Counted from the first letter of the stretch, positions 1-37,750 are shown. The stretch is DNA of 64,000 nucleotides from an uncultured virus (IMG/VR IMGVR_UViG_3300037847_002883) (IMGVR_UViG_3300037847_002883); one strand, 5' to 3'. Notes: generated from the sequence alone by a model not told the origin. Made by a program: numbers and translations.

Positions 1-155
1 ATAACAACTAAATAATTTCCAAACCTATGCACTCCTGCTTCATATTTCTTTTTGAACATTTTTGCGACAATATTTTCAACAACATCTTCAATTTGAAAAA
101 CGAACCTTTCTATATCATCTTCTGTAAATTCACTTTTAATAATGTCTTTCCACAT
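1..155 (-). CDS. Hypothetical protein with N-terminal WxxIIK motif (truncated by window edge)
   Basis: Own translation from ATG at 155: MWKDIIKSEFTEDDIERF..., open to base 1; abuts stop of upstream gene. Confidence 0.7.
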   Translation of the reverse strand, partial: MWKDIIKSEFTEDDIERFVFQIEDVVENIVAKMFKKKYEAGVHRFGNYLVV

Positions 156-833
156 TTATTCCTGCCCCCTCAAAGAGTCTTTCCAATCTTCTCTATCTTT
201 CATCCTCTCATCCTGATTCAAGGCTTCTTCAGCAGTAATGTTCTTTCCTGTATTTGGGTCGTAAGCCATAGGAAACATCGGCTCATACATATCTTTTCCT
301 TCTGCTTCTCCAAACTTTTCAATTAATTTTTTATGAACATCGTCAATTAACGCTTCAGCCCAAGCATCTTCTTGCTTACAATAAAGACCAAATGTAGCCT
401 TGTCGTAATCATATGCCCCAGCAATATACATAGGTATAGGATAAACTTCTTTATCTTCTTCTTTTAATCTATATTCTTCTCCAAATTTGTCAGCAATATC
501 ATCAATAACTTCTCCAAATCCATAATTCCACATATCATACCAATCTGCACCAGTTATTATTTTATCTGCTTCAGGATATTCTACTACAAAACCCCTGCCT
601 TCGTGATAACCAACTAAAGGAAAACACTCCAATACATAATTAGGGGTATAGTAATAACCTTCTAAAGAAGAACCACCAGCACCATCTGTTAAATCATAAG
701 GATGTTTTCCTTCTTTTGCTTCTATTTTATCAAGAACCTCCCTTATTAAGGGATTCATAAATTCAATAATTTTTTGCTTTGCACGAAATGGGGGAACTTT
801 AACCTCTCTATTTTTGATTATATCTTCCCACAT
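156..833 (-). CDS. Hypothetical acidic protein with N-terminal WxxIIK motif
   Basis: ORF 156..842; probable start MWEDIIK at 833. Confidence 0.7.
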   Translation of the reverse strand: MWEDIIKNREVKVPPFRAKQKIIEFMNPLIREVLDKIEAKEGKHPYDLTDGAGGSSLEGYYYTPNYVLECFPLVGYHEGRGFVVEYPEADKIITGADWYDMWNYGFGEVIDDIADKFGEEYRLKEEDKEVYPIPMYIAGAYDYDKATFGLYCKQEDAWAEALIDDVHKKLIEKFGEAEGKDMYEPMFPMAYDPNTGKNITAEEALNQDERMKDREDWKDSLRGQE

Positions 834-838
834 AATAA

Positions 839-2149
839 TCAATCCAAGAAATACACAATGTCGCCTTTGCCTTTCAAAATATCCATAGCCTCTTTACGAA
901 GAATATCATATTTTTCTTTTGTGGAAATATTACCACCCGATTCTGTAATTAAAATACTTTGGTCGTCATGTCGGATAATTTCCGATGCGGCTAATTTTGT
1001 TGTGGCTTCGTGAATTGCAGATGGGACTCTATTATCACCAGCGATATAAGAAACAATAACTGAATTGTTTCTGTGATATGGATAATCTTTCAAAAAGAAA
1101 ATACGACCTTCTTCATTAATTGTCCAATAATCGCCAAGTCTTCTTAAGTCCTCTTTATCTGTAAATGCTTCTAATGTGCAAACAGTCGGAATTTCACTAG
1201 TGGTAGTAAATGTCAAATTTCCTGAAAATGCGCCACCTGTTGTAGCATGGGTTAAAACAACAGTTGTTGAATCAGTAATAGAAGCAATTGTGGCCGCAGA
1301 AGGAACATTAGCACTTCTTTCCCCACTTATTGTCATCCCTACGGCTAATTTACTAGAATCAGCAACGGTGAGATTAACTGAGTTATTGCCCGAACAAGCC
1401 TGTTTTATGGTCGCCTTGATGGTGCAATCTGCCCCATCGTCGCCCGAAAGTAGGGATGAGAAGAGGATTTGCTTCCCGTTTGACTTGGCCTTCGCCGCAT
1501 AGAAAAAGTCAGAAATAGATAAATTAGATTGAGTGAGGCTTTTTGGTGCAGTTGCACCAGTAAATTGAGACATTGAAGGAAATGATTCATTTACCAAAGA
1601 GATGATTTCTTCATTGGTTGTTTTGATACCAAAGGTATTATTAAACTCATCATTACCTAAGTCAGTTAAATCATTTTCTGCAATCATCTCAAAAGACACG
1701 CCGCTATTCGGCAATTGAAGAATAATAGAATTTAAGTCTCTAAAATTATCTAGCAGGGTAATTTTTGCTTGAGCCGATGCAATTTCAATATACTGGCTTC
1801 CCTGCCACAAAAGAAGAGAAACAATCTTTCTTACTTTCATTTTTGCCAATTGCACAAAACCAACATGACCGCCGTAATATGCCTTGTGTGGCAGGTGAGA
1901 AAATTCAAAGTTATGATACTCGTCCTTCGTGATAATTGGTCGGTATGAACGCTTTACCTTGTCGTCCACGATACCCTCTACTCTCTTTATGATTGACCCA
2001 ATTTGAGCCAATGTCGGGTATGTGGTTGCTGAAAAAGCGGGAACCTGTAATAGATTAGCAACCTCGGTTGCATTGGTATAAAAGCCCCGACCTTGAGAAT
2101 AATCTGGATTAATTTCCGTAAAATCACTAGGCGAGATTGTTTGTCCCAT
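839..2149 (-). CDS. Putative head-tail adaptor/neck protein with inserted beta-rich domains
   Basis: Position downstream of MCP; C-terminal SYIAG..VPSAIHEATTKLAA resembles the adaptor signature; Thr/Ser-rich insert. Confidence 0.5.
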   Translation of the reverse strand: MGQTISPSDFTEINPDYSQGRGFYTNATEVANLLQVPAFSATTYPTLAQIGSIIKRVEGIVDDKVKRSYRPIITKDEYHNFEFSHLPHKAYYGGHVGFVQLAKMKVRKIVSLLLWQGSQYIEIASAQAKITLLDNFRDLNSIILQLPNSGVSFEMIAENDLTDLGNDEFNNTFGIKTTNEEIISLVNESFPSMSQFTGATAPKSLTQSNLSISDFFYAAKAKSNGKQILFSSLLSGDDGADCTIKATIKQACSGNNSVNLTVADSSKLAVGMTISGERSANVPSAATIASITDSTTVVLTHATTGGAFSGNLTFTTTSEIPTVCTLEAFTDKEDLRRLGDYWTINEEGRIFFLKDYPYHRNNSVIVSYIAGDNRVPSAIHEATTKLAASEIIRHDDQSILITESGGNISTKEKYDILRKEAMDILKGKGDIVYFLD

Positions 2150-2150
2150 T

Positions 2151-3833
2151 TCAAGCACCAATCATTTTTTGTAAAGCCCTAATGTTTTTCTTTAACTTAT
2201 TGATATAATTAGCCATTGCTTTGTTTTGGCCTCTTCTTGCACCACTTAAGTTAAATTCACCGTGATTTGTCACTTCAAAGTCTACTTCAACAATAGAGTT
2301 TTTAAATGCATCAATTAAGCCATCTTTCGGAATAGGAACCATTGAAACCTTTTCTGCTCCAAAATCTCCAGCAGTTCTTGTTTTAAAACTTCTTTTAGTT
2401 TGACCTTCGGCATCTTTTGTCTCATCAAATTCAAATACAGAAATTTCGGATTTGTAGTCTCGTTTTTCATCTTGAGTAAGATTTCTATATTCTTCTTCCG
2501 AAATAAAAATCTTGCTTCCGTCTTTATTTCTTTTAGTTTTATGACTAAATGCTTTTTGAGACTGTTCTTCAATTTGTTCAGGAGTTAAACTTTTACCACC
2601 AAAATCTTCAAGATTTTTAATTGCCTCAAGAGCCATCTCTCTATATGTTTGTTCCGTCTTTCTTGAGTTTTTAATGTTCGCATAACATTTTACAGAATAT
2701 ACAACATCGGGAACAACTAAGAATTTGTTGAGTATTCTCATAATGGCTTCTTCATTATCAATAAAGAATCCTTCAGGTGTTCCCGAACTACCGTCATATG
2801 GGAACTTAACTCTCACCACTCTATTTGATTCTGCAAAAGTATAAAAATAATACTTATCGCCTATTTGAACAATATCTTCTTCTCTCATCAAATCTGTTCT
2901 GTTTAAATCTAATCTAGCGGCTGAAATAACAACAACATTCAAATCTTCGGTAAGATTCGTTGGCATAGGCATTTGTTGTCCAACTTGCTCAAAAGTTTGA
3001 TTACCGTCTTCATCTTCTACTAATTCCATCTCAGTAAGAGTATTTTTACTTTCAAGTTCTCCCGAAATTTGCTCAATATGCTTTTCGGGCAAATCAAAAG
3101 AATAGTCAAAGGTTTCTTTACCTATGTTTGACTTGGAGTTTCTTTCTCTAAAAGCGGCCTCTTGTCCTGTTTGTTCTAGAATAAAATCAGTCTTTGCAGC
3201 AATCAAAGCCCCTTCATCAAAAGAAGGAAATTTTGCTTCCATATGTGCTTTTAGTCCACTCATATCAGATTGAAAACCATAAGTGTATTTTCCTTCCTGC
3301 CCGACCCCTTTATGTTGCCGAATAACAATATCATAATCAACATCAAAAGCATCTTCGCCTTTTCTTGTTTTAAGTTTATTTTTAGCATACCAAGATTCAA
3401 AATCAAAATCAGGTAATTTAGTGACTCCGCCTTCAATAAAAGAAACATCTGTTCCTCTAAGCCTACCTAAAACCCTGTTATTAGATAAGTCTTTTAATTT
3501 CTTATCTTTAATAAACTCTAAATTTGCAGTATTCGGTTTAGGTTTCTCTCCCTGCCTTCTTCGCAGTTCGGAAAATCTACTCCAAGCCTTAGCATCCTTC
3601 TTTAATTCTTCTTCTAAAGACTCATCTAAAACTTTTCCTAATATAGCACTTAACTCTTCATCTAGTTTTTGTGCATTAACTTCGCTTTCTTCTACACTTT
3701 CTCTAGCAATTCTTAATTTATTACGAAAAGACTTTTGTCCTTCTGTAATATAGTCTCTCATTTGAGAGAAAATATAATCTTTAGATTTGGGTAGAGAAAG
3801 AGTTTGATTACCCCATCTAAAACTAACAGACAT
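2151..3833 (-). CDS. Hypothetical protein (560 aa), possibly virion-associated
   Basis: Long ORF in late operon, GAGGTGA SD upstream. Confidence 0.6.
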   Translation of the reverse strand: MSVSFRWGNQTLSLPKSKDYIFSQMRDYITEGQKSFRNKLRIARESVEESEVNAQKLDEELSAILGKVLDESLEEELKKDAKAWSRFSELRRRQGEKPKPNTANLEFIKDKKLKDLSNNRVLGRLRGTDVSFIEGGVTKLPDFDFESWYAKNKLKTRKGEDAFDVDYDIVIRQHKGVGQEGKYTYGFQSDMSGLKAHMEAKFPSFDEGALIAAKTDFILEQTGQEAAFRERNSKSNIGKETFDYSFDLPEKHIEQISGELESKNTLTEMELVEDEDGNQTFEQVGQQMPMPTNLTEDLNVVVISAARLDLNRTDLMREEDIVQIGDKYYFYTFAESNRVVRVKFPYDGSSGTPEGFFIDNEEAIMRILNKFLVVPDVVYSVKCYANIKNSRKTEQTYREMALEAIKNLEDFGGKSLTPEQIEEQSQKAFSHKTKRNKDGSKIFISEEEYRNLTQDEKRDYKSEISVFEFDETKDAEGQTKRSFKTRTAGDFGAEKVSMVPIPKDGLIDAFKNSIVEVDFEVTNHGEFNLSGARRGQNKAMANYINKLKKNIRALQKMIGA

Positions 3834-3843
3834 TTAATTCACC

Positions 3844-4494
3844 TCACATTAACCATTTTGCCCAAGCCGCACCTTTTTGAATTGCTGCCCCTAAATGTAA
3901 TCCACTTGAAGGAGGCTCATAACTCATTTGACCTTGAGCATCAATCCAATAAGGCCGTCCATAGCCGTCTGTTCCACTTGGAGGAATAGGATAACCTGAG
4001 CCATTATTCATAGCACCTTGCATTTGTTGATATTGCTGAGTATTTCCAGTAACATTGGCTAAAGCCATTCCTGCTGATGGTTGTTGCATACCTCCACCAC
4101 TAAAGCCTTGTGATTCAAGATATTGCTGTTTAGCCATCTTTCTTTGCATAACAACCTCAGTATTGATTGCAGATTGCAATAACTTTTGAATATCTAAATC
4201 AATGTTTTCTTGAGTAATTCTTTCATATTCACGAAGAGCATCTCGGTTCACCGTAAGATTGCTACCATTAGAGTCAAAACTCAACTTAGCAAGCATTTGA
4301 GAAACAACTCTTTCAACAACATCTTCCATCAACTTTTCAAGAGCAACCAAGAATTGTTCCCCGTGATATTGAAAGAACTCTTCAACATGGTTTTCCTGTA
4401 ATGAAAGTAAATTATTCACCGTTTTAAACTGTGTATCGCTTTGTGCTTGAACTGCACCTAACACGGTGCTGTTGCTTGTTCCTAATAATCCCAC
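3844..4494 (-). CDS. Hypothetical helical protein with Q/G/M-rich C-terminal region
   Basis: 216-aa ORF tightly packed with neighbours. Confidence 0.6.
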   Translation of the reverse strand: MGLLGTSNSTVLGAVQAQSDTQFKTVNNLLSLQENHVEEFFQYHGEQFLVALEKLMEDVVERVVSQMLAKLSFDSNGSNLTVNRDALREYERITQENIDLDIQKLLQSAINTEVVMQRKMAKQQYLESQGFSGGGMQQPSAGMALANVTGNTQQYQQMQGAMNNGSGYPIPPSGTDGYGRPYWIDAQGQMSYEPPSSGLHLGAAIQKGAAWAKWLM

Positions 4495-4496
4495 TT

Positions 4497-5165: not shown

Positions 5166-5170
5166 AGCAA

Positions 5171-7481: not shown

Positions 7482-8834
7482 TCAAAGGAGATTGGTAATC
7501 TTTCCTTGACCCTTGAAGTAAGAACAACCAGTTTCAGCCATTGTGCGGTAAAGAGCCTTGTTTCCAAGGTTGCCGACACCGAATGGGTTTCCGTTGCTGA
7601 TACCATCCTCAAAGTATTGAGTTGGCTTCATAACAGATAGCCACAAATGGTCAGTATCAAGGAAAAGCATATCACTAATCAAACTGGAGTTATTACCCGT
7701 AGAAGGCATAGCAGCGACAGGAATCAAAGGAATGTCGTAGTAAGTAGAAACACGGAAACCGACTTCTGCACCCTTAACACCACGAACACCGTTCACAGTT
7801 GGAACGATTTCCTTTCTATCCATGAAACGCTCTTGAGCCTGAAGCAAGTCAGAAAGCGTTTGAAGCGTATCATATCCCGTAAGAATGACCTTTGGTGAAC
7901 CACCAGCAACACGGAGTCTGCGAACCATGTCGTTAATCACAGTAAGCGTCAATTGTCGTGCTTCTGCGGAAAGGTAGCCATCACCGAAAGAAACCTCAGC
8001 ATCCAAATACTCGTTGCCCGACGCACTTCGGAGTTTTCCGTAAAGGGTGTCAATTTGTTGGTCAGTAGCCGTTCCAACAAGGTTTCCGCCAGAATTGTCA
8101 GCCAATTCAGTAATTTCAGCAGAGTTAGCAACAATCTTGTAAAGAGAGGTGTAGCCTCGGTCAATTGCGTTAAGAGTCGTATATGCCGTGGTTGGGGAAT
8201 AGTTCTCCAAAGGCATAACAAGCATTTGATTCTGGACTTCAGCGTGGTGCTTACCCATATCTTCTCTCAATTGAGCACGAATATCACCGATACCATCGTC
8301 AATTTGAGCCATTTCCATAGCCAATTCGCTGAAAGCAAATTGATGAGCGATGATTTTCGGGCTGGTAAAGAGCGTATCGTATTCGGGAGCAATTGAAATC
8401 AAACCATCCGTGTTTGAATCAAGGCTGGCGTTTTCGGGAACACCACCGATTCGGTCAGCACGAAGGGAATCATCACCATAAAGCGAGTCCGAAAGAGCCG
8501 TATTGGAAGCCTTGGTAATATCAAGGAAATTACCCGTTCCACCAGCAGGACGCTTCTTAAGGATTCTCCAACCGCTTGAAGAATAAGGTCGCTTTGCGAT
8601 AACAGACAATGCGTTGCATTCTCGGTTTAGCATAGACCAGACCTTTTGGCCGTAAATTTTGTTGTAAAGGTTTGCATTAATACCCGTTGGGTCGCTTAAT
8701 GAACCATCGTGAGCGACATGAATGCCGCTAACGGTTCCTGCGGCCTTTAGCAATTGGTTGCTAATATGACCCGTTGCGCCCGTTCCGTATGTTGCTGCTT
8801 CTAAATCTGCAATAGTGTTAATATATCCTACCAT
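7482..8834 (-). CDS. Major capsid protein (HK97 fold)
   Basis: 450 aa directly after protease/scaffold; pattern typical of archaeal tailed-virus MCPs (PKIIAHQF..SELA; C-terminal QGKITNL). Confidence 0.85.
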   Translation of the reverse strand: MVGYINTIADLEAATYGTGATGHISNQLLKAAGTVSGIHVAHDGSLSDPTGINANLYNKIYGQKVWSMLNRECNALSVIAKRPYSSSGWRILKKRPAGGTGNFLDITKASNTALSDSLYGDDSLRADRIGGVPENASLDSNTDGLISIAPEYDTLFTSPKIIAHQFAFSELAMEMAQIDDGIGDIRAQLREDMGKHHAEVQNQMLVMPLENYSPTTAYTTLNAIDRGYTSLYKIVANSAEITELADNSGGNLVGTATDQQIDTLYGKLRSASGNEYLDAEVSFGDGYLSAEARQLTLTVINDMVRRLRVAGGSPKVILTGYDTLQTLSDLLQAQERFMDRKEIVPTVNGVRGVKGAEVGFRVSTYYDIPLIPVAAMPSTGNNSSLISDMLFLDTDHLWLSVMKPTQYFEDGISNGNPFGVGNLGNKALYRTMAETGCSYFKGQGKITNLL

Positions 8835-8845: not shown

Positions 8846-10042
8846 TCAAAGGTTTCCTCCAACCATTTTATGAATGTCAGCCCAATCCATTTCGGCTAAT
8901 TCATCCATAGTAGGGAGTTTGATTTGGGCTTCTTCTTGAGCCTTAATGATGTTGTCTCTTTCAGCCGTCAAAGACTTTCGGAGAGAAGCAAATTCATTCT
9001 TAAGAGAAGCAATTTCGGAAGCCGCATCATATTGCGACTTTGCGAGAATGTTTTCTCTCGTTGAAGTTTCAGCCGCAAAGCGAGCCTCAAATTGCTTTTG
9101 GAGATTGTCGTATGCTAACTTTTCAAGTTGTTCTTGACGGAAAGCCTCGTAAGCCTTCTCAATGTTTCCAACGGACAAATCAAGGGTTTCAAGTTCATCA
9201 TTGTCAAAAGCCTTCACAACGGGCAAATCCGATGCTCTTGGCTTTCCGTTGTCAATAACGATTCGGTCAGCAGGTTCGCCAATTTCAACACCTGCACCAT
9301 CAAGAGTGGAAACATAGGCTTTGGCTTCATCATCCATGTATTCGCCCATACCCTTTTCATCCATCATCTTTTCGTCATCATCTTCCATAGCCATGCCCTT
9401 TTCTTCATCGGACATATCCATGCTTTCTTCTTCTTCCTTTCTCAGCATATTGACTTCCTCCATAAGAGCGTCAAGTTCTGCCAATGCTTTTTCAATTTTG
9501 GTCATATTTTTCACCTTTTTTGTTTTGTCTTGCTTTAAAATGTCAAACTTTGCTTCTGGATTAATTCCTTTTTCACAAATAGTGACTTCATGTAATTCTA
9601 ACTTTGAAATTTCGTTGTATTGTCCAAATTCATCATTGGTTTTCTTTACTTTTTCTAAAGCCTGTCCTCCAATACTGAAACTTCTTAATGAACCTTTTCT
9701 AATGCCTCGGTTAATTTCCTTTGCCTTTTCAATATCATCTCTTAATTTGATTACTACAAAGAATCCGACATCATCAACTTCTGTTTTGAATAGTCTCCCT
9801 GATTTATCTCGGTATGATTCAACGACTTCTCCGACTTGAACATTTGAATGGTTTGTCATTACATTTCTAAACTTTGGGTTCTCCATGTATTTTTTAACAG
9901 CCTCTTTAAGTGCTTTGAGTGTGATTAAATCATTTTGCTTATCAACGATTTCAATGCTTGCATATCCTCCAATCATCAAGTCGTCTTGGCTTTTTAGAAT
10001 CCTGAAATCGTGAGCGTTGTTCCTCATCACCGCAGAAGTCAT
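8846..10042 (-). CDS. Prohead protease fused to acidic coiled-coil scaffold
   Basis: GYASIEIVDKQND, H in MTNHSN, SFSIGG, LHEVTIC..GINPEA (HK97-type protease); acidic helical C-terminal half. Confidence 0.88.
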   Translation of the reverse strand: MTSAVMRNNAHDFRILKSQDDLMIGGYASIEIVDKQNDLITLKALKEAVKKYMENPKFRNVMTNHSNVQVGEVVESYRDKSGRLFKTEVDDVGFFVVIKLRDDIEKAKEINRGIRKGSLRSFSIGGQALEKVKKTNDEFGQYNEISKLELHEVTICEKGINPEAKFDILKQDKTKKVKNMTKIEKALAELDALMEEVNMLRKEEEESMDMSDEEKGMAMEDDDEKMMDEKGMGEYMDDEAKAYVSTLDGAGVEIGEPADRIVIDNGKPRASDLPVVKAFDNDELETLDLSVGNIEKAYEAFRQEQLEKLAYDNLQKQFEARFAAETSTRENILAKSQYDAASEIASLKNEFASLRKSLTAERDNIIKAQEEAQIKLPTMDELAEMDWADIHKMVGGNL

Positions 10043-10086: not shown

Positions 10087-13068
10087 CTATTCTTCGGTGG
10101 GAAGGGGCAATTTATTATACCTATCCTCATAGATGTTCCACTTTCCTTCATCTCCCTCCTTATCGGCAGGTGTTTGTTTGTAGCCCGTCCAAGCAAGCCA
10201 CATTTTCTCTCCACCCACATCTAAGACTCTATAATGCATTTTTGTTTCAAACTTATTACCTTCTAAGAAATATTCGTGATAGCCATCTCTTTGAATACCT
10301 AAACGAATTTTACCTGAATCTACTAATTTACCTTTAGTTACTGTTTTTGCTACTTCTGCTGGATATTTACCAGCCGCTCCGAATAGGTCAAACATTTCTT
10401 CTTCGTTCTCAATATTGATAGTCCAAAACATATTTTCTGTTTTTAGACCGATAGCAAAAGTTAAGTTATCATCTTCTCTTGCATAGATTTTAAATTGACC
10501 CTCTCTTAATTCTTTAGGTGTTTTATATTCATCTTCAACGAGTTTAATATCTTCTTTTAACATAGCATATTTATCACTAAAACCAGAGTCTCCATAAACG
10601 CATTTTTGATAATCTTCTAAGGCTTGTTCTAATAGAGTATAATCCACCCCTTCTGCAGGATTAGAAATGAAATCTTCGGCTAATTGTGATAAGTAGTCGC
10701 AATCTAACATATCTATTGATTTATCCATATTCTGCACTTCTGCTTCATATTCACTTTCCCAAAGGTCGCCATCATATGTTTCTGGCTCTGACAAAACAAA
10801 TTGATATAATTCATCATAACCGCCGAAATATTTAATATGAGAGTCCAAAGTAGATTTTCTGTTTTCTTTAACGGCTTGCTTTAAATTACGACAACATTCA
10901 TCATCGTCATTTGAATCAATTTGAACAGCATCATCTTCTTCTGCTTCTTCAATAATTTCTTCAATGCGAACTAATTCAGCCATTTTGATTAAACTTTTTT
11001 TAATTTCTTCTTCTTCCTGCATGATTTTATCATCATCAGCAGCAATTTTATCATCTCTTTCGCTGATACCATCTCTAAGAATGGCCCATTTCTTTAACTT
11101 CTTTTCATCGGAATCAAGAACCTGCTCATACAAATCTTTATGTTTTTCTTTTAAGAAGTTATGAATTTGTCGTGGAGTCTGTTCACCATTCATTTTTAAG
11201 TATTGGAAGATAGCAACAGTTAATTCACTTTGCTTAGTTTTCATAATATCAATGGCCTGTTGTTTCCACATATCTAAATCCATTGTAGCGTTCTTAGACA
11301 TTAGGTTATCTTCTTCATAACCATAGATAGTAAAACCATCTAAATCATACTTGATGATAACATTTGCTTCTCCGTGAATGTGGTCTGTAATTTTAACACC
11401 TTTTGTAAATGCTTCAACATTATAGTTAAGAGACTTCTTGGTGTCTTGAGAAAGTAATTCCAAAGTGATTAATTTATCGGGATGCTCAACTTCAGGAATT
11501 TCAATTGGTTTAGCAGAGAATAAACTAAACCCATTACCCTTCTTCTTAACTTCATCCACCTTAACTCGGATAATATCTCCAACATCAACAGCAATTTTTG
11601 TATTCAAAGCCTTACCTACATTCAAGTATTGTTTCTTATCAATCTCAACTGTTCCTTCCATTTCTTCATTTATTGGCCCAATACCGACTGTATAAGAATA
11701 TAAATTACTCTTTGTCTTTTTCTTTTCTAATACGATAACATCTAAATCAACAAACTTCTTTAACTTAATCCACTTCGGATTTTTCTTTGTTCCGATGTAA
11801 TAAGTAGAAGTAGCGTCTTTGATAACGACTCCTTCCGAAGCAGGATTTTGCATAATTTCATCGGCATATTTTTGTATATCTTTGAGATTATCTGCTTGTC
11901 GGGTATCTTTCTTTGAAGGATAAGCAATCGCTTCACTAGATTTTGATGAATAATTATTGAATAAAATTGTCATTCTACTCTCTAATTCTTCATCCACAAG
12001 AGTTTGAGACTCATGGCGAATAATATCAAAAACATGACACCTTAATGTAGCATCTTTGTATTTGCCTTTAAAAACATGAGCGATTGTATCTGCTCTATGA
12101 AGGGGGTCGTCGCCATCAAAAAGAACTAATTCTGCATCAAAAATACAATCTCCATATTCTTTCTTCTTTAATTCATCAACCTGTGCTTTACACTTGTCAG
12201 TAATGTCTTTTTCATTATAAGAATAAATTTTTACCTTATCATCAATTTTATGCAATTGGACTCTCATGCCGTCAAACTTTTCTTGAACATACCAGTTTCC
12301 GCTAAATCCCTTTAACTCCTTAATATCATCCACTTCAAAAATTCTATACATGGGTTTATTGGGAACAATAAACTGAGAGATAGATTTCTTTTCATCGCTT
12401 GGCACAGACTTTTGAACCCCTTCAATATCAGTAATGTCTTTCCATTCTTCTTCACTATTCTTAGATAAGAAGATTAACTCTAACATATCCATAGCAGCCT
12501 TTACTTTGGATTCAACTTTCTTTGAGTCTTTTCCATCCCCGTAATGCTCAATAATATAGAGGGCTACATCGTCCACTTCTAGGTCAAGTCCCATAAGACC
12601 CTCCGTAATTGTGTCGGGGGTCATGTCTTTAACGCTGTAAATGTCATCGGGTAGGGCTTTATTGTCGTCCCTTATAGCATAATGCACAAATTTGACCATG
12701 CTTTCGGGATTATCTAGCAATTCTTCAAGCACACTATCCTTGAACATGGCGGCGAAGGGGTCGGCCACGATGGATGAAGAATACCGTAAAAGTTTGATAT
12801 TCTCGTAAAGTTCTTTGGCTTGGCGTGAAGAGGGGTCTTTGACATCTTTATCGTCTAAATCCTTTTCATCAATGAAGTTTTTCATTTCTTTGCCAGCAGC
12901 ATCAGCCTCATTATATGATTCAATAATGGTATCAACTGCTTTACGCCAACGGCCCGAATATTCTGTTGGGTCGCTTCTTGCAGACAAATAGGCTACCCGT
13001 GTCTTTTCAAAAAGACGAAGAATTTCTTGAGAAGGCTGTTTATCCTTCTCAATAGAAGCCAATTTCAT
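10087..13068 (-). CDS. lig: Multidomain ATP-dependent DNA ligase
   Basis: Motif I QEKFDGMR, III FDAEL, IIIa HVFDI, IV EGVVIK, V WIKLKK, OB fold; long N- and C-terminal extensions. Confidence 0.88.
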   Translation of the reverse strand: MKLASIEKDKQPSQEILRLFEKTRVAYLSARSDPTEYSGRWRKAVDTIIESYNEADAAGKEMKNFIDEKDLDDKDVKDPSSRQAKELYENIKLLRYSSSIVADPFAAMFKDSVLEELLDNPESMVKFVHYAIRDDNKALPDDIYSVKDMTPDTITEGLMGLDLEVDDVALYIIEHYGDGKDSKKVESKVKAAMDMLELIFLSKNSEEEWKDITDIEGVQKSVPSDEKKSISQFIVPNKPMYRIFEVDDIKELKGFSGNWYVQEKFDGMRVQLHKIDDKVKIYSYNEKDITDKCKAQVDELKKKEYGDCIFDAELVLFDGDDPLHRADTIAHVFKGKYKDATLRCHVFDIIRHESQTLVDEELESRMTILFNNYSSKSSEAIAYPSKKDTRQADNLKDIQKYADEIMQNPASEGVVIKDATSTYYIGTKKNPKWIKLKKFVDLDVIVLEKKKTKSNLYSYTVGIGPINEEMEGTVEIDKKQYLNVGKALNTKIAVDVGDIIRVKVDEVKKKGNGFSLFSAKPIEIPEVEHPDKLITLELLSQDTKKSLNYNVEAFTKGVKITDHIHGEANVIIKYDLDGFTIYGYEEDNLMSKNATMDLDMWKQQAIDIMKTKQSELTVAIFQYLKMNGEQTPRQIHNFLKEKHKDLYEQVLDSDEKKLKKWAILRDGISERDDKIAADDDKIMQEEEEIKKSLIKMAELVRIEEIIEEAEEDDAVQIDSNDDDECCRNLKQAVKENRKSTLDSHIKYFGGYDELYQFVLSEPETYDGDLWESEYEAEVQNMDKSIDMLDCDYLSQLAEDFISNPAEGVDYTLLEQALEDYQKCVYGDSGFSDKYAMLKEDIKLVEDEYKTPKELREGQFKIYAREDDNLTFAIGLKTENMFWTINIENEEEMFDLFGAAGKYPAEVAKTVTKGKLVDSGKIRLGIQRDGYHEYFLEGNKFETKMHYRVLDVGGEKMWLAWTGYKQTPADKEGDEGKWNIYEDRYNKLPLPTEE

Positions 13069-13699: not shown

Positions 13700-13945
13700 T
13701 CACTCCATCTTTGAAACCATTTTGTGAATATCCGACCAATCCATGCTAGAAACATCAGTAGATGGTAATGTATCAAAACCACCAACAGTATTATCCATAG
13801 CAGGTGTTGGGCTTTGTGAAACAACAAGGCCAGCCTTCATCAAAAGACTGTCTTTTGCATAGATTGTCTTTTCCAACGCTTCAACCTTTGCAGTTAAAGC
13901 CTTAATAATTTCTAAAACATCTTTGTTAATACTTTCTTCTGTCAT
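13700..13945 (-). CDS. Small coiled-coil protein ending in scaffold-like MDWSDIHKMV motif
   Basis: C-terminus nearly identical to that of protease/scaffold. Confidence 0.65.
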   Translation of the reverse strand: MTEESINKDVLEIIKALTAKVEALEKTIYAKDSLLMKAGLVVSQSPTPAMDNTVGGFDTLPSTDVSSMDWSDIHKMVSKME

Positions 13946-16803: not shown

Positions 16804-18444
16804 TTAACCAACTCTTCTTTCTGTCCTTGTGTCAGTATTTTGATTTCCAGCCTCTAAGGGCAAACCCGCCATTCTCTTATCTGGGCCTACGCTCATTCTG
16901 CTTTTATTCCTTGTGGCGGGAGGGTTCTCTTGGGGCTTGCCTCCGCCTTGCATCGCCTGTTCTTGCATCTGCCCCAATTGTGAAGCATCAATGTTTGTCC
17001 CTGCATACGGGTCAGGCTCCGCCTGTTCCCCTTCACCTTCTGCTGGTGGTTTTTCTTCGGGTTCAGGCTTTTTGAAAGTAAATTGTCCATCTTCGTCCAT
17101 ATCAACTTCAAAGCCTAAATTCTTTGTTGATGCAGCAATATTAACTTCAATCTCACGCTTACGAAGAACAGCAATTTCATCTTCTTCTTCGCTTGGTGGC
17201 AATTTCAAATTCCAGTCTGTAATACCAAACTGCTTTACAAGGAACGGGAAAACATAATTGTTATAGACAGTTTGTGCTTTTTGAACTGCTCTGTTTGTTA
17301 CGAGAATTTGCATACCTTCATTATTTAATCCACCGCTTGTAGTATTGTCAGCCATAAATACCTTGCTAACACCATAGAAAGCAGAAATTCTATCTCTTAA
17401 ATCGTCTTTAACGGAGACATAATCCATTTCTTTAAGACTATCCATGAACTTAATCCATTCAACTGCCCCTTTGCCACTTTCTGCTTCAATGCCCATGACA
17501 GGAATGAAGTGAGGGTCGGCTTCCATCTTTTCTTTAACCGACCTCCAAAACGACCTCATAGAGTCCATGTTTCTTGTCTGAACTGCGAGTAAGCCCCTCG
17601 GCATTCGGCTCTTTGTATAGGATTGATTGACATAGTTCTCCATAGCAATAAGTGTCATAATATTGTTAAATAAAGTAATAACTGGAGACATACCATAAAG
17701 ACGAGAAGGACTATATTTACTGAAATGCAACACCTCTCCCTTCAAGAAATGTTGGTCATCTCCATTTACTCTATTCACATAATGGATAGGAAATAAATTG
17801 CTATTACAAATTTCACACTTTTCATGCGGGTCTTTGTGAATAACACCACGATGATTTACGCAAGTAAAGCCCTTTGTTCCTCTTTGTCCATTTTCATCAC
17901 TATAAATAAACATTGTAACTGGGTCGCCACGATAAACTTCTTTGATGCGATGCATTCTAATTTTACCATTACCGTCAATAAAATATTCTTTAACGAGAAC
18001 AATGTAAGCATCATCCATAATATTTAAATCATCCTCAAGTTCCTGCAAAACATCAATAAACAATTGCTCAGACTTATTTACATAGCCTTCAATAAACTTC
18101 TCAGCATATTCTAATTGTTTAACATCAGGAATCTTAAGGTCAGCACTTTTACAACGAGAACATTCTTGAACAGGTCTTTTATGTTCTTTACCACAATTAT
18201 TACATCGTGCTTCATATGCTTTCTCCCAAACATAGCCTCTTCTAAATACTTCTTGTTTTAATTGAGTAATACAAGTTCTAGCAATAACTGATTGATTGAC
18301 AATATTATAGATGATTGGGCCAGTCATCATGTGATTGGTTTCTCTTTCTTGAATACCCATGTTGTAGACTTTTCTATCAGCAGGTTTGGGAGTTTGTCTC
18401 CTAAACAGATTAGTAATGCTGAATCTTCTTTTTTCTTCAACCAT
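16804..18444 (-). CDS. Portal protein with Zn-ribbon insertions
   Basis: LHFSKYSPSRLYGMSP, DRISAFYGVSKVFM portal-like motifs; lies between TerL and protease. Confidence 0.85.
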   Translation of the reverse strand: MVEEKRRFSITNLFRRQTPKPADRKVYNMGIQERETNHMMTGPIIYNIVNQSVIARTCITQLKQEVFRRGYVWEKAYEARCNNCGKEHKRPVQECSRCKSADLKIPDVKQLEYAEKFIEGYVNKSEQLFIDVLQELEDDLNIMDDAYIVLVKEYFIDGNGKIRMHRIKEVYRGDPVTMFIYSDENGQRGTKGFTCVNHRGVIHKDPHEKCEICNSNLFPIHYVNRVNGDDQHFLKGEVLHFSKYSPSRLYGMSPVITLFNNIMTLIAMENYVNQSYTKSRMPRGLLAVQTRNMDSMRSFWRSVKEKMEADPHFIPVMGIEAESGKGAVEWIKFMDSLKEMDYVSVKDDLRDRISAFYGVSKVFMADNTTSGGLNNEGMQILVTNRAVQKAQTVYNNYVFPFLVKQFGITDWNLKLPPSEEEDEIAVLRKREIEVNIAASTKNLGFEVDMDEDGQFTFKKPEPEEKPPAEGEGEQAEPDPYAGTNIDASQLGQMQEQAMQGGGKPQENPPATRNKSRMSVGPDKRMAGLPLEAGNQNTDTRTERRVG

Positions 18445-20196: not shown

Positions 20197-20534
20197 GCTC
20201 TCATCCTCTTAGTTTTTCTTTTACTAGATTCTTTTCTTGATAATGCTACTTTGTGTGCCGCATTTAATCTTTTCTTTGCTTCAGGGTCTTTTGCTCTTCT
20301 TGCTGCAACTCTTGCTCTTTGTTCTACTAAATTGATAATTTGCGATTGTCTTTTGTGTGGCTTTGATTTGAATGATGAACTTGAAAAAGTTTCTCTTACA
20401 TCTTTTGCAGTTTTGAATTTAACAGGAACAGTATCTTTTGGGTTTTCGTCTGTATATAATCTTCTTGCTGAACCTTTAGGTTTCTTTCCCGTTCCTTTCT
20501 TTGGGTCTTTCTTTAGAATATTAATCCAATTCAA
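20193..20534 (-). CDS. Basic hypothetical protein, N-terminal WxxILK
   Basis: MNWINILKK; K/R-rich. Confidence 0.6.
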   Translation of the reverse strand: MNWINILKKDPKKGTGKKPKGSARRLYTDENPKDTVPVKFKTAKDVRETFSSSSFKSKPHKRQSQIINLVEQRARVAARRAKDPEAKKRLNAAHKVALSRKESSKRKTKRMRA

Positions 20535-21075: not shown

Positions 21076-21237
21076 TCACTTCTTTTTGGATTTATTTCCC
21101 CAATTTGCAGCACCGACTTTACGACAACGGACAAGCGCACCTGAAGCGTATGCAGAAGGCCATTTCTTATAACGGCTTCGCACTTTATGATAACAGGCAT
21201 CTTTTTCTTTCTTTAATTCTTCAAACCATAACGACAT
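21076..21237 (-). CDS. Small basic protein (53 aa), N-terminal WxxLK
   Basis: Own translation MSLWFEELKKEKDACYHKVRSRYKKWPSAYASGALVRCRK...; fills gap between neighbours. Confidence 0.65.
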   Translation of the reverse strand: MSLWFEELKKEKDACYHKVRSRYKKWPSAYASGALVRCRKVGAANWGNKSKKK

Positions 21238-23323: not shown

Positions 23324-24754
23324 TCAAAAGTTCAAGCCTATGGTGGACGAATAGCCCTGTTGTGGTCGTGCTGGCTCATCACCAAACAACCCCAAATCAT
23401 CAAGCAGTATGAAGTTATCCGTGGCTTGGTAAGTGGCCGCATTCGCTAAGGCAAGGCTCATCACCATATCGTCATGCGCCCCGATTCCCTCAAATTTTCC
23501 TCGTTCAGTAATCGCAAACATTGACATTTCTTCAATCAATAATGAAGAAACCTTTCTGCTCTCTTCGTTGCCGTATGGGAAGTTAATCTTTCCATTTTCA
23601 AGAGTCATTTGTAAATTGAGAATAATCTCCTGTTTCTTTCTACGGGTTGTATCAAAGTCATGAACATTTACATCAGCGACTTGACGAAGTTCTTGAGTAA
23701 ATGATTTAGCGAATGTGTTTGTTTCAAACAAGATAACCTCTGGTCTAAATACTTGATTTAGCAATTTCACTTTTTGGATATTCTCACGGAACTGAACATT
23801 CTTTGCTCGGTCAATATACACAATGGATTTATTTTCGTTCTCATCCATCTCAAGAACAGTAATCACATTGTAGTCTCCATCAGTAGAAATAGCAGGGTCT
23901 ACGCCTATGAAGTATTTATATCCTTCACGCTTCAATGGCTTCAACACTAAATCTTTATTCTTAGCATTGTCTAAATGTTCGGGATTAAAGAGAGAAGTTC
24001 CCGTTGAAATAGGCACACACATATATTCCCGTGTGAACATTAATGAACCGACTTCTGCCTTACGAGCCATCAACGCCTCATAGTTCCAACGGTCAGGCCA
24101 CAACGGTTCGTTTAGTGCGTTTAAACAAGGGTATGTTCTAACAGTATATGCAGCGTTTTCTGCTAATTGTTGATAAATATCTGTATAACTGAACGGTGTT
24201 CCAATAACACGCAAAGATGCGGTATGGTGAAGTGTTGGAATCATATCGCCGTAAAACCAATCAGTCACTTTTTGAATACCTGTCATACTAAATTCTTTCA
24301 AAGGGTCGTCAATAATAATCTCTTGAGGGTGAAGTCCACGAATCTGTGAACCAACCGACCTTTCAAGAATTTGGTTTCCATTGGTCAATGTAATGTTTCC
24401 AATAGCCCAACCTCTTGCGGGTTTAAATTTCTTGAGCATTGGATGGGTGAACATCTTATCTATGTCTCTCATGTGAACGAGAGTCTGCTTTTGGTTAGAA
24501 GAAATGTAAAGCATTTGATATGGCGGTTCTTCAAAGATTAACTTCCATACCACCCAACTATGCATAAATACAGATTTTCCGTGGTCACGGGAACAAATAA
24601 TAACTGTTCTTTGGGTAGTGTTCATTAATTCGTGCCATTCTTGAATGTAGGAAGGAAAATCAAAACCTAATACATTTTGAAAGAAATATGGGAATGAATT
24701 GCGGGACAATTGCATATCCATTTCATGTTCAAAATTGAAGGCTTCTAGTTCCAT
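23324..24754 (-). CDS. terL: Terminase large subunit
   Basis: Walker A SRDHGKS, Walker B IIIDD, GTP coupling motif, nuclease GVDPA...HDDMVMS. Confidence 0.92.
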   Translation of the reverse strand: MELEAFNFEHEMDMQLSRNSFPYFFQNVLGFDFPSYIQEWHELMNTTQRTVIICSRDHGKSVFMHSWVVWKLIFEEPPYQMLYISSNQKQTLVHMRDIDKMFTHPMLKKFKPARGWAIGNITLTNGNQILERSVGSQIRGLHPQEIIIDDPLKEFSMTGIQKVTDWFYGDMIPTLHHTASLRVIGTPFSYTDIYQQLAENAAYTVRTYPCLNALNEPLWPDRWNYEALMARKAEVGSLMFTREYMCVPISTGTSLFNPEHLDNAKNKDLVLKPLKREGYKYFIGVDPAISTDGDYNVITVLEMDENENKSIVYIDRAKNVQFRENIQKVKLLNQVFRPEVILFETNTFAKSFTQELRQVADVNVHDFDTTRRKKQEIILNLQMTLENGKINFPYGNEESRKVSSLLIEEMSMFAITERGKFEGIGAHDDMVMSLALANAATYQATDNFILLDDLGLFGDEPARPQQGYSSTIGLNF

Positions 24755-24764: not shown

Positions 24765-26648
24765 TCAATCTAATTCGCCTTTAAAGTATGGTTCCATCAA
24801 TTCCATAAGTTTTTTAACTTCTTCCTCTGGATGTTCTCTAGTAATTTTATTTTCATATATGGCTTTTTGGTGGCCTTTATTCATAGATAAATTAATTTGA
24901 AATCGGTCTAATTGTATTTGTGCTTCTTCTAAGTTAAAAGGCTCAGTCTGACTCAATAAATCATCTGTTGAATCTTCTAATATCTCTTCTTTAGGTTCAT
25001 GGCCAGGTTTAATTCCATCATAGAATAAATTCAAAAGAGGTTCTTTGTCTGGGCCAATAACATTATCAACGGGATATTTATCACCATCATCAATGTGATG
25101 AAGAACAACAACTTTTCCTATCTGTTCAATTCTATTTTTGCTCTTTCTGTATTTTAAATCCCCAACATAAAGTTGTCTATATCCCCTATTAACTCTTGCT
25201 TTTAATTGTTTTATTTTAGAATTGCTACCTTCTAAAACATCAAAGATTACTAAATCGTGCCTGCTGGGAATATCGTTGGTATAACACCAATAACTCATAT
25301 TACTAGGAGGCAAAGAAAGAAGTCTATCCTCTAACACCCTATCAATAAAAGGATGATTTATGTTTCTTTGAGGCTTGCCGCTTCTGTCATAATCAGCCCT
25401 TTTTCCTTCATAGGTTTTAATATAATTAGGAGTCATTATGATAGCAACATTTTTATTTTTATCTATACGAGTTAATGTCCCTCCTTCTCCATTTTGATTT
25501 ACCCATCCTTTTTGTTTTTCATAAGAAAAGTCTGCTTTAAATTTAAGAATATCTTTCCAAGACTTCTCAAAAGTCGGGAAAATATTCTTCGGTTCTTTTG
25601 GTAGTCTTCTTCCTCTCTTCAAACCACGCACCCCATATTTTCCATGAATGTCAAGAAATTTTCTTCCCTTTGGAATACCTTGTCCTCTTTTGACTTTGCC
25701 GACCATTTCTTTGCTAACGCCTGTAAAAATAATAGCAGTTTCAAATCCTTCCAAATTAAGTTTCTTATCTGCGTTTGGTGTGTAAGGCTCTCCTTGTTTG
25801 ATAACATCAATCATAACATATGTATTGTCTTGCTTCACATTCGTCCCAAAGAACCAGTATTTTCCTTTCTTTAGATTCATCTCAGTTAATTTTTCCAACC
25901 AACCTTGCATTAAAGAAGTTCCCGCATTCGGTATTCTATCGCTGACCTGCCTTAAATATTGCTGAGAGACAAATGCTTTATATTCTGCTTTACCCTTTGA
26001 CTTGATGTTTTTGTCTTTAAATCTGTCTCTTGTGCCTAAGTCGGGAGCAGGTTCTCCCAACTCAAAATCATCCCAAGTGTTGTCGGGTAAGTATTTGAGA
26101 AGATTAAACCATGATGGAGTAGGGTCGTCAAGATACACGCACTTCGCAAACTCACCCTTTCCACGAATATTACGAATAGCCCAATTACCATTAGGGTATG
26201 CACTATTCCATTCATTTACTACCGATTCAGGAAGCAATTGTTTCATTTGCTCCCAGTTCTCACTATCGGGAAAAGCCCATCCGTTCTTTTTTGCAGTAGC
26301 AATCCAACGAGCATTATCTCCATCTCTGTGTCCAAAAGCAGCGACTAAGGGTTTAGATTGGTTTAATTGTGGCTCTCTTGCATCCTGTAATGCACGATTA
26401 TTTCCACCAATCTGCCTTCCTTCTGCGGTAGCATACATTCCGCCAACCGTAGTATGAGAAGGGTGTTCTTTCCAGCCAACAGTAGAAATAGTCTTATCTT
26501 CATCATTTACACGAATAAGCCAATTATCTAAAGCATAAAGACCAGTTTCTAAATCCTTTCTGCGAGTATAAGGGTCGTCAGGATTATCCTGAGCAAACCT
26601 TCTTTTCATATCTTCATATGAAAAAATCGCAGGGAGAACTTTAGGCAT
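24765..26648 (-). CDS. Multidomain protein with two internal WxxLLK/WxxILK motifs; N-terminus possibly GNAT-like
   Basis: 627 aa; internal SWFNLLKY and SWKDILKF. Confidence 0.55.
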   Translation of the reverse strand: MPKVLPAIFSYEDMKRRFAQDNPDDPYTRRKDLETGLYALDNWLIRVNDEDKTISTVGWKEHPSHTTVGGMYATAEGRQIGGNNRALQDAREPQLNQSKPLVAAFGHRDGDNARWIATAKKNGWAFPDSENWEQMKQLLPESVVNEWNSAYPNGNWAIRNIRGKGEFAKCVYLDDPTPSWFNLLKYLPDNTWDDFELGEPAPDLGTRDRFKDKNIKSKGKAEYKAFVSQQYLRQVSDRIPNAGTSLMQGWLEKLTEMNLKKGKYWFFGTNVKQDNTYVMIDVIKQGEPYTPNADKKLNLEGFETAIIFTGVSKEMVGKVKRGQGIPKGRKFLDIHGKYGVRGLKRGRRLPKEPKNIFPTFEKSWKDILKFKADFSYEKQKGWVNQNGEGGTLTRIDKNKNVAIIMTPNYIKTYEGKRADYDRSGKPQRNINHPFIDRVLEDRLLSLPPSNMSYWCYTNDIPSRHDLVIFDVLEGSNSKIKQLKARVNRGYRQLYVGDLKYRKSKNRIEQIGKVVVLHHIDDGDKYPVDNVIGPDKEPLLNLFYDGIKPGHEPKEEILEDSTDDLLSQTEPFNLEEAQIQLDRFQINLSMNKGHQKAIYENKITREHPEEEVKKLMELMEPYFKGELD

Positions 26649-32802: not shown

Positions 32803-32813
32803 TGTAATTTCTC

Positions 32814-33014: not shown

Positions 33015-33031
33015 TGTAATCTCCCCTGCAT

Positions 33032-34226: not shown

Positions 34227-34230
34227 AAAA

Positions 34231-34500: not shown

Positions 34501-34501
34501 T

Positions 34502-36509: not shown

Positions 36510-36511
36510 AA

Positions 36512-36679: not shown

Positions 36680-36680
36680 C

Positions 36681-36887: not shown

Positions 36888-36991
36888 TTCTTCTCACCTG
36901 TTATTAAGTCTTTCTTTTGTTTTTCTTCTTCTTTATCTAAACGCTTTGATTCAGCATCAAACCATGAATCTAAATAAGTGCATCTTGTCAT
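36884..36991 (-). CDS. Tiny hypothetical protein (35 aa)
   Basis: Own translation MTRCTYLDSWFDAESKR...; GGAG SD; ATGA overlap. Confidence 0.45.
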   Translation of the reverse strand: MTRCTYLDSWFDAESKRLDKEEEKQKKDLITGEKK

Positions 36992-37029
36992 GTTAATTTC
37001 TCCAAAAATTTTTGGCGGAATTTTTTTTA

Positions 37030-37338
37030 CTAGTAATCTTCAGACCTTTGCACATAGCCTCTCACAGCAAGTTGATAACGATGTAATAATTTAATCAACT
37101 CATCAGGAGAAACATCAATTCGCTTAGAATTTGGGCCAATAATTTCATTGTGAAGTTTAACTGCTGATTCTAAAATATTAGTTCCTACCCTTTGAAGGTC
37201 TTTATGCAAGTCTAGCATTTTTCCAGCAATATCAAACTCAACAAACCTTTCTGCAGAAAGAGCATTTGAAGTAGTAATCTCCATGTCGTCCTCGTCATCT
37301 ACAAATCTCATGTTTTTCCTAATCTCATCTTTCCACAT
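37030..37338 (-). CDS. Hypothetical protein (MWKDEIRK)
   Basis: ORF with AGGTGA SD. Confidence 0.6.
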   Translation of the reverse strand: MWKDEIRKNMRFVDDEDDMEITTSNALSAERFVEFDIAGKMLDLHKDLQRVGTNILESAVKLHNEIIGPNSKRIDVSPDELIKLLHRYQLAVRGYVQRSEDY

Positions 37339-37342
37339 AATA

Positions 37343-37750
37343 TCACCTTTTTCTTCTATATACGGTTAATGCGCCACCCATATCTAATTCGTTATAGACG
37401 GGCATTCCTTTGTAGCGTTCCTCAACATATTGTGGTTTAGCCCTAATATCAGAGAAGGAAGACCACGCTTCGTCTTTATCCAAATCAAGTTCAGTTTCAA
37501 GATTAGGAAGTAATTGGAAGTTTTTGTAAGGAATGATTTTATATTTTCCTGAACTAACATATTTATATAAGGCATGGATAGTATGCATATGTGTTATTCT
37601 ATTTTCAAAAAGAACATATTTAGGCCAACCATCAACATCAAAATTATTCTCAACATCGGCTATCCCCTCTCTATCAATAGGAACCATTTCAATTCTTTTA
37701 GGAGGATTAATCTCCACAGGGTCTTCTTTAAGAATTTCTTTCCAACTCAT
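37343..37750 (-). CDS. Hypothetical protein, N-terminal WxxILK
   Basis: MSWKEILKE, AGGTGA SD. Confidence 0.6.
   Translation of the reverse strand: MSWKEILKEDPVEINPPKRIEMVPIDREGIADVENNFDVDGWPKYVLFENRITHMHTIHALYKYVSSGKYKIIPYKNFQLLPNLETELDLDKDEAWSSFSDIRAKPQYVEERYKGMPVYNELDMGGALTVYRRKR

Follow-up and report, generated by a model that had tools for sequence, protein, structure and literature searches.

The virus IMGVR_UViG_3300037847_002883 (IMG/VR) is an uncultured, group-B-like magrovirus, of which we analysed one stretch of 64,000 nucleotides, hereafter the window. On the strand that encodes the capsid genes, a large set of proteins with mostly unrelated bodies carries one short peptide, M-x(0-2)-W-x-x-[ILVM][ILVM]-[KR] in its strict form, which we call the tag. 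What holds such a disparate set of proteins together? Codon usage and comparison with relatives indicate that the tag is selected as an amino-acid sequence and is specific to this virus lineage; in a sister lineage, judged by its genome, the corresponding genes carry another tag. We tentatively read the tag as a docking peptide that would load its carriers into the prohead, in the manner of the capsid targeting sequence (CTS) of phage T4.

A shared peptide on genes of the capsid strand

All 22 minus-strand starts for which the initial annotation had reported the peptide encode it as claimed (Table 1). Twenty begin with ATG, the others with GTG (at 19769) and TTG (at 20534), and most have a ribosome site of the GGAGG or GGTGAT type 6-12 nt upstream. 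The strict pattern is matched by 18 of the 22. Three tags are looser, namely those at 21237 (WFEELK), 31909 (WFEQLK) and 37338 (WKDEIR), and score 11.5-17.3 bits with a tag profile. We derived this profile from 306 non-redundant tags found in the window and in its relatives, and applied it to all 17,932 positions in the 85 called window proteins. The tag at 18731 (WKQLK) is one residue short and has a rival upstream ATG at 18761; because it scores only 2.0 bits, we regard it as a decayed copy. Relatives of its body have full tags or are fused behind a module that we call module A (see below).

The profile yielded 23 matches at 11.5-23.6 bits, 21 of them N-terminal and two internal, and the next best match scored 8.4 bits. 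Both internal tags, which the initial annotation did not list, lie in a single open reading frame (ORF) of 627 aa. Profile-tagged genes account for 21 of the 49 genes on the minus strand and for none of the 36 called on the plus strand, where the best score (5.4 bits) falls inside ribonucleotide reductase; the earlier observation that plus-strand genes lack the motif is thus borne out, and the equal frequency in early (plus-strand) genes that had been named as a counter-sign is not found. At the level of DNA, the pattern TGG-N6-RTH-HTN-AAR occurs 20 times in the window and 3.17 +/- 1.74 times in 100 shuffled versions, none of which reached 20; 17 of the 20 sites lie on the minus strand below position 37750.

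As had been proposed, the bodies behind the tags are mostly unrelated: stripped of the tag, the 21 complete window proteins form 18 BLAST clusters. The major capsid protein (MCP), the prohead protease, the portal and the terminase large subunit (TerL) are all untagged, and the tagged genes form clusters upstream of TerL, in the interval from TerL to portal and in that from portal to protease. No tagged protein contains a transmembrane segment or signal peptide, judged by the lack of any 19-residue window with a Kyte-Doolittle mean of at least 1.6. Four are strongly basic (+11 to +29). Relatives keep the 762-aa protein as tagged proteins of 741-811 aa.

Database searches say little about what the carriers do. 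NCBIfam had matches for 0 of 27 proteins, a PDB sequence search found nothing for the 762-aa protein, and module A retrieved only unnamed viral clusters from the ESM Atlas. Among Pfam and PHROGs, DUF6321 alone exceeded the Pfam cut-off; the remaining matches were unnamed PHROGs and a weak hit of the 53-aa protein to DUF5872, below the cut-off (18.2 bits, cut-off 27.5), next to a strong match of the same protein to phrog_727. DUF6321 forms the C-terminal part of the 154-aa protein and is found elsewhere in untagged proteins of 1200-2000 aa, one of them with an InPase domain. The tag does not belong to this domain, because the longer DUF6321 homologues (120 listed) contain only 5 tag-like sites in 68,173 aa. 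In a structure model of the 154-aa protein the tag is part of a helical N-terminal extension (pLDDT about 62), followed by a winged-helix-like domain.

Selection on the peptide and tolerance of position

Is it the peptide or its coding sequence that is conserved? Codons vary, as had been noted before: the Leu position in the 306 non-redundant tags uses all six codons (TTA 73, CTT 63, CTA 57, TTG 32, CTC 17, CTG 6). Third codon positions hold 0.07-0.27 bits of information, and upstream of the tags conservation is limited to the ribosome site. The initial annotation had named nucleotide-level conservation, the mark of a translation signal, as a counter-sign; the codons and third positions are instead free. 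The last residue is Lys in 300 cases and Arg in 6, although the search pattern permits both. One family, with 24 sequences, has the same W3 and K8 throughout and conserves I6 and L7 to at least 90%, while whole modules behind the tag vary. By these measures the tag is selected at the amino-acid level and is not a nucleotide signal.

The tag is not confined to the start of proteins. In 160 related loci the tag occurs 405 times, and for 77 of these copies the three codons upstream include no ATG, GTG or TTG. Relatives of the 113-aa family are true in-frame fusions, in which a module of ~40 aa precedes the retained tag, and some copies of the tag are C-terminal. Module A, the first 178 residues of the 627-aa ORF, always ends in the tag; in relatives the chain then stops, runs into another tag or continues with unrelated modules, among them the body of the gene that starts at 18731. 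Because tags occur internally, in fusions and at C-termini, a translation signal of the start region is ruled out, and such tolerance of position fits a short linear motif. The proposal of a modular tag on a swappable set of proteins therefore stands in so far as it concerns peptide-level selection and diverse carriers on the capsid strand only; its strictly N-terminal position does not.

One tagged family of 87 aa has no ATG, GTG or TTG before its tag (L028 nt ~3670, L019 nt ~3008, L052 nt ~6226). There is an ATT one codon before the W, with GGTGG 10-14 nt upstream and an overlapping TAA from the preceding gene; ATT is probably the start codon of this family.

Distribution among related viruses

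Our first set of relatives comprised 80 loci around related portals (79-100% identity). These contain 409 tagged starts on the coding strand and 2 antisense; the 409 form 82 BLAST clusters by body, and of these clusters one, inside the MCP, is a false positive. A second group, with MCPs of ~63% identity, has 142 tagged starts and 1 antisense, 15 of the 142 being the same MCP false positive. Two complete relatives of ~96 kb show the same strand bias: tags are found on 16 of 66 capsid-strand genes and 0 of 65 genes of the other strand in G002, and on 24 of 76 and 0 of 60, respectively, in G006. In five complete relatives examined at the DNA level, the pattern matches 9-28 times on the capsid strand and 2-5 times on the other, compared with 1-2 matches for reversed-pattern controls.

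Beyond these groups the tag is lost from view. Distant relatives, with MCPs about 45% identical, have no tags near the MCP and encode proteins of 738-1973 aa upstream of the protease; HVTV-1 has proteins of 1048 and 1313 aa at the corresponding position between portal and protease. HVTV-1 and the tag-less relatives have multidomain proteins of 1000-2000 aa in the portal-to-protease interval, where the window virus has small tagged genes. Among 185,579 GTDB species genomes we found 29 scattered single matches, with no clusters and none labelled Poseidoniales, a negative that is weak because a single codon version of the tag was scanned (Ser = AGT; K/Q/E, D/E). Taken across these genomes, the tag is specific to the virus lineage. 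The main texts of the magrovirus papers searched do not mention it, and PMC11706807 uses 'motif' for helix-turn-helix only. Searches of the literature for tag peptide strings retrieved only frog skin peptides, designed or generated peptides, an epitope study of CCHF virus and a gut-microbiome study.

Two observations concern the relatives. At nt 496-4419 (-) of G006 (locus L201), seven adjacent tagged proteins of 142-232 aa resemble an array of tandem paralogues. Six start with MWW/MWF-x-I-[ILV]-K and one with MSWRSILK; a K-Q-x-S-[RK]-like stretch comes next in six of the seven and is missing from the 189-aa member (MWWDIIKAQQQFKE). Furthermore, an optional module, H-C-G...D-x-D-K-D-G-K-I-T-G-x-D-F, which resembles a calcium loop of the EF-hand type, directly follows the tag in members L019, L042, L052, L066, L071, L076 and L079 of alignment A2 and is absent from the window copy.

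A second tag in a sister lineage

The 108-kb genome G007 contains 15 exact matches to F-[DE]-x-[AS]-W-x-[LIVM]-[VLIT]-K, all on the capsid strand, and a profile made for this peptide finds 17 sites of at least 18 bits, again all on that strand. Most are preceded by M-T-A. The two tags end alike: one or two spacers separate an aromatic residue from a pair of aliphatic residues and Lys. We conclude from these genes that the sister lineage has a second, different tag on an equivalent gene set.

Resemblance to the tail of the scaffold

Where else in the window does a similar peptide occur? The best match of the tag profile other than a tag (8.4 bits) is the C-terminal tail of an untagged 81-aa protein, and the tail of the protease-scaffold protein (4.2 bits) is also among the top five non-tag matches. 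The two proteins share their last ~14 residues, and the 81-aa protein, which is conserved in both related groups, is likely a second protein of scaffold type. The tails follow the consensus M-[DSEK]-W-x-[DE]-I-H-K, on the protease-scaffold and a protein of ~80 aa. A search of the 160 related loci for W-x-[DE]-[IVL]-H gave 241 coding-strand matches and no antisense ones; 239 of the 241 lie within 20 residues of the C-terminus, and only in these long protease and short ~80-aa classes. In the N-terminal tag, M, W, D/E, I and K recur at the spacing that they have in the tail. Tails that are common to a maturation protease and a scaffold bind the capsid protein in herpesvirus (UL26/UL26.5), lambda (C/Nu3) and HK97 (gp4), the HK97 protease tail reportedly being the subject of work by Duda, Oh and Hendrix in 2013.

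A docking peptide for the prohead?

The reading that we favour, though tentatively, is that of a T4-CTS-like docking peptide that loads its carriers into the prohead. The tag would probably fold into a short amphipathic helix, one face of which presents W, I/V and L, the intervening residues being polar. It would dock the carrier on the assembling prohead by binding either the scaffold or the HK97-fold capsid protein at its inner face, so that fast-changing, small, soluble proteins, several of them strongly basic, would become enclosed in the head and enter the host together with the DNA. The S78 prohead protease may trim the tag after the near-invariant Lys.

Several features liken this arrangement to T4. 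In both, a short N-terminal peptide is found on unrelated proteins encoded beside head genes (21 tags in 18 clusters here). The carriers are small and the gene set polymorphic, as is the carrier gene set of T4; some carriers are strongly basic here, and the T4 internal proteins are basic as well. In each case a nearby gene encodes a prohead protease, and the two proteases belong to one broad fold class. In contrast, the tag has no sequence likeness to the T4 leader, and the protease belongs to Pfam S78 (HK97 type) rather than the gp21 type. The magrovirus tag ends in Lys, the T4 cleavage site in Glu. The 16-24 carriers per genome compare with a handful in T4, the tag also occurs inside fusions and at C-termini, and the host is archaeal. 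Packaging and removal are proven for T4, whereas for the magrovirus tag both are predictions. According to PMC5694885, which draws on Mullaney and Black 1996, the CTS is an N-terminal propeptide of 10-20 residues; it directs the internal proteins IPI-III and Alt to the core and is cleaved off afterwards.

Three other systems invite comparison. The first is that of the capsid-binding protease and scaffold tails, since the protease-scaffold and the 81-aa protein have the terminal peptide M-D-W-x-D-I-H-K in common; the tag differs in being N-terminal and on accessory proteins, and capsid binding is a prediction for either peptide. The second is that of the cargo-loading peptides of encapsulins, likewise short terminal peptides on diverse cargo with proposed binding inside an HK97-fold shell; those of encapsulins differ in consensus, in their mostly C-terminal position and in their cargo, enzymes that they bring into a compartment without DNA. 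The third is that of giant virion proteins. Like the polyvalent multidomain virion proteins of phages, which Iyer et al. reportedly described in 2017, and the giant portal-proximal proteins of haloarchaeal tailed viruses, such as gp113 and gp115 of HVTV-1, the tagged set is located between portal and protease and consists of mix-and-match modules; it also has DUF6321 in common with them, the DUF5872 match staying below the Pfam cut-off as said above. Unlike in such giant proteins, the modules are mostly separate small genes, each with a tag, and not one covalent chain; the tag-less relatives have giant proteins and no tags.

A broader joint reading, which we put forward as a possibility of lower likelihood than prohead docking, is that of an address code: each magrovirus lineage would have its own terminal address peptide (W-x-x-I-L-K here, F-D-x-A-W-x-L-V-K in the 108-kb sister), derived from or convergent on the scaffold tail, that loads up to about two dozen separately encoded, rapidly exchanged proteins into the capsid for co-injection and could be used for foreign cargo. 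The tagged set would then be a 'split' version of the giant polyvalent virion proteins.

A number of points weigh against prohead docking. For packaging and cleavage we can invoke position and analogy, and the 'late' status of the tagged genes is assumed from their strand and the neighbourhood of TerL, portal, protease and MCP; the tagged genes at 156-833 and 3-155 sit past the tail genes. We know of no head-internal protein set with a common leader that approaches up to 24 tagged proteins per genome. Although tag and scaffold tail are similar, they proved not to be the same peptide: of 479 N-terminal tags none has His at W+4, where they have L/I/V/M, but 217 of the 232 C-terminal copies do. 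Tag and tail are two strictly separate classes and may not have a binding site in common. Nor is mimicry of the tail general, because the G007 tag profile does not recover the protease tail of that genome (D-G-W-R-A-V-E-D-L), to which the G007 tag bears no likeness.

Candidate cleavage sites were equally equivocal. The protease contains F-x-I-L-K sites before the S78 domain (DFRILK, aa 12-17) and at its end (KFDILK), conserved in both tagged groups; the h-h-K end of the tag is similar to them. We set them aside as tag-specific autoprocessing sites and regard them as ambiguous, similar sites being present in tag-less relatives: at these places L082, L084 and L086 have LLLKD or NIFKD, and GFQVLK or GFEVLK. 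The MCP copy G-W-R-I-L-K (aa 89-94, SSSGWRILKK) was rejected as a maturation site; it is unlikely to be one because it represents a family-wide SGWRV motif, kept in nearly all of the 96 full-length MCP relatives aligned, and because it forms a confident, buried-looking beta strand (AlphaFold model, pLDDT 90-94). Protease-type sites are not enriched in the giant proteins of tag-less relatives and HVTV-1, with 0-3 loose matches each. Cleavage after the Lys is possible, with ambiguous hints from sequence and nothing specific in support. A predicted complex between the MCP (86-row alignment) and residues 1-40 of the tagged 154-aa family, run without controls, scored 0.00 and speaks neither for nor against binding.

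Alternative explanations

Could the tag dock to something other than the capsid? The main rival to prohead docking, in our estimate an unlikely one, holds that it binds another hub, viral or host, late in infection: the viral GroEL/GroES, the pair of ThiF (E1-like) and JAB-like proteins, machinery for proteolysis or quality control, or a factory for replication or assembly, with the Lys as a possible modification site. The virus does encode a chaperonin pair as well as ThiF-like and JAB-like proteins, the tag acts as a generic, position-tolerant short linear motif, and the preference for Lys over Arg (300 and 6) would suit a modified residue. That tag and scaffold tail form distinct classes, and that the G007 tag is unlike the scaffold tail, also speak for another hub. 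However, the candidate hubs are encoded on the opposite strand amid replication genes, and this strand lacks the tag in all 161 called genes of three genomes, whereas the tagged genes are interleaved with TerL, portal, protease and MCP. The prokaryote scan, within its one codon version, revealed no tag clusters and no Poseidoniales matches.

Distinctly less probable is that the motif is mainly a recognition and cleavage site of the S78 protease (aromatic-x(1,2)-h-h-K, cut after K), marking polyprotein-like domain borders and the leaders of single genes, with entry into the head by other means. The capsid protein of HK97 is matured by a cut after a Lys (P1 = Lys), the motif occurs at module junctions of fused proteins, both lineage tags end in h-h-K, and the protease has F-x-I-L-K before and at the end of its S78 domain. 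These sites of the protease are kept in tag-less relatives, where they may be structural, and the MCP copy is a buried-looking beta strand. Hydrophobic residues at i, i+3 and i+4 and the predicted helix (pLDDT about 62) suit a docking helix better than an extended substrate; moreover, removing 7-9 residues from a free N-terminus would serve no evident purpose in the absence of targeting.

We give still less credence to a shared leader that is a relic of cassettes spreading through duplication and recombination with a common 5' module, and has no present function. Homology between relatives does stop exactly at the tag, the tagged region is hypervariable, and G006 has its run of seven tagged paralogues. 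Nucleotide identity within the tag is nevertheless too low for homologous recombination; W, I/V, L/I and K are fixed while neighbouring residues and bodies change, and the tag is kept in two groups whose MCPs are only about 63% identical. A translation-start signal, acting through the structure of the mRNA or by an effect of the nascent peptide on initiation or on early elongation, is already largely refuted: most copies do stand at a start codon behind a good ribosome site, but synonymous sites are free, the 19% of copies that are internal or C-terminal are still conserved, and plus-strand genes with equally good ribosome sites all lack the motif.

Significance

Philosof et al. 2017 (PMC5434244) count magroviruses among the most abundant viruses infecting ocean archaea; there is no cultured representative, and for most of the genes no function is known. 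A tag found on between a fifth and a third of capsid-strand genes sorts much of this dark matter into one functional class and offers a concrete handle for finding and testing carriers in viral-particle metaproteomes, with reporters or with recombinant proheads. If packaged, the carriers would outnumber every known set of co-injected proteins that have a leader in common, and the system would be the first of its kind from an archaeal virus, pointing to an arms race fought through proteins that arrive with the DNA. Two tags in sister lineages would amount to a natural experiment on the co-evolution of address and receptor, and a tag that works as proposed could be used for loading foreign cargo into the head of an archaeal virus.

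Genome layout and further observations

The window consists of two divergent gene blocks (Table 1), between which the GC skew switches sign. We assign it to a group-B-like magrovirus because its gene content agrees with the description of group B by Philosof et al. 2017 (PMC5434244), which lists GroEL, ribonucleotide reductase, tRNA-Leu, tRNA-Arg and a ligase within the structural module. The plus block encodes a UvrD-type helicase, a class II ribonucleotide reductase, a TFIIB-like zinc ribbon, ThiF-like and JAB-like proteins, a GroES-like/GroEL pair and three tRNAs. The protease matches Pfam Peptidase_S78 with E = 2e-10. In the phage collection, the only named relatives of the MCP are haloarchaeal tailed viruses (23-24% identity) and methanogen viruses.

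Table 1. Positions of tagged genes, head genes and related features in the window.
Feature	Position (nt)	Strand	Remarks
Minus-strand gene block	~38,200 down to 1	-	
Plus-strand gene block	~43,600 to 64,000	+	
Tagged gene	3..155	-	MWKDIIK; 20.8 bits; runs off the left end of the window
Tagged gene, 225 aa	156..833	-	MWEDIIK; acidic (net -22)
HK97-fold MCP	7482..8834	-	untagged; candidate receptor
S78 prohead protease	8846..10042	-	protease aa 20-171, fused to acidic scaffold-like C-terminal half
Protease-scaffold tail	8867-8890	-	MDWADIHK; protein ends M-D-W-A-D-I-H-K-M-V
81-aa protein	13700..13945	-	untagged
Tail of 81-aa protein	13721-13744	-	MDWSDIHK; protein ends M-D-W-S-D-I-H-K-M-V
Tagged gene, 84 aa	13950..14204	-	MSWKTILK; Cys-rich
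Tagged gene, 107 aa	16479..16802	-	MENWENVLK; immediately after portal gene
Portal protein	16804..18444	-	untagged
Gene with degenerate tag, 77 aa	18498..18731	-	MSWKQLK; 2.0 bits
Tagged gene, 154 aa	18907..19371	-	MTWKEILK; winged-helix-like module and DUF6321; net +29
Tagged gene, 132 aa	19371..19769	-	(V)SWEIILK; GTG start
Tagged gene, 140 aa	19774..20196	-	MSWENIIK
Tagged gene, 113 aa	20193..20534	-	(L)NWINILK; TTG start; net +25
Tagged gene, 179 aa	20531..21070	-	MSWKKVLK; net +19
Tagged gene, 53 aa	21076..21237	-	MSLWFEELK (looser); net +11
TerL	23324..24754	-	untagged
Three-module protein, 627 aa	24765..26648	-	no N-terminal tag
Internal tag of 627-aa ORF	25542-25559	-	WKDILK; at module junction
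Internal tag of 627-aa ORF	26094-26111	-	WFNLLK; at module junction
Tagged gene, 153 aa	26650..27111	-	MSWFNLLK
Tagged gene, 762 aa	29621..31909	-	MSWFEQLK (looser); acidic, rich in charged residues
Tagged gene, 295 aa	31915..32802	-	MSWRNILK
Tagged gene, 66 aa	32814..33014	-	MGWEFILK
Tagged gene, 68 aa	33032..33238	-	MSWEKILK
Tagged gene, 109 aa	33897..34226	-	MWKDILK; top profile score, 23.6 bits
Tagged gene, 280 aa	35667..36509	-	MGWFDILK
Tagged gene, 55 aa	36512..36679	-	MWKEIVK
Tagged gene, 68 aa	36681..36887	-	MSWRDIIRK (R replaces K)
Tagged gene, 102 aa	37030..37338	-	MWKDEIRK (looser); 11.5 bits
Tagged gene, 135 aa	37343..37750	-	MSWKEILK

Between portal and protease, at 10087-13068 (-), lies the gene of a 993-aa protein with a net charge of -63 and an ATP-dependent DNA ligase domain (aa 251-437), which occupies the site where relatives encode giant multidomain proteins. 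The presence of a ligase in the magrovirus structural module was called unexpected by Philosof et al. 2017 (PMC5434244). In the replication block, a 292-aa protein (56440-57318, +) has an N-terminal zinc ribbon of the TFIIB type, which fits an archaeal host and scores below the Pfam cut-off (24.7 bits, cut-off 29). The ThiF (E1-like) and JAB-like proteins are encoded near each other in the same block (57656-58213 and 59256-59840, +) and hint at a virus-encoded system of ubiquitin-like modification, the JAB match being weak (E = 6e-4).

The gene-poor, GC-richer (0.43-0.46) stretch that separates the divergent gene blocks has features of its own. It alone holds an array of the palindrome ACCATATGGT, with ten exact copies in 38300-42900 (expected 0.02), each nested in a longer imperfect palindrome and spaced by 300-1250 nt. 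The array may serve as an operator or origin. A unit of ~1.13 kb has apparently been duplicated (39463-39947 and 40603-41075).

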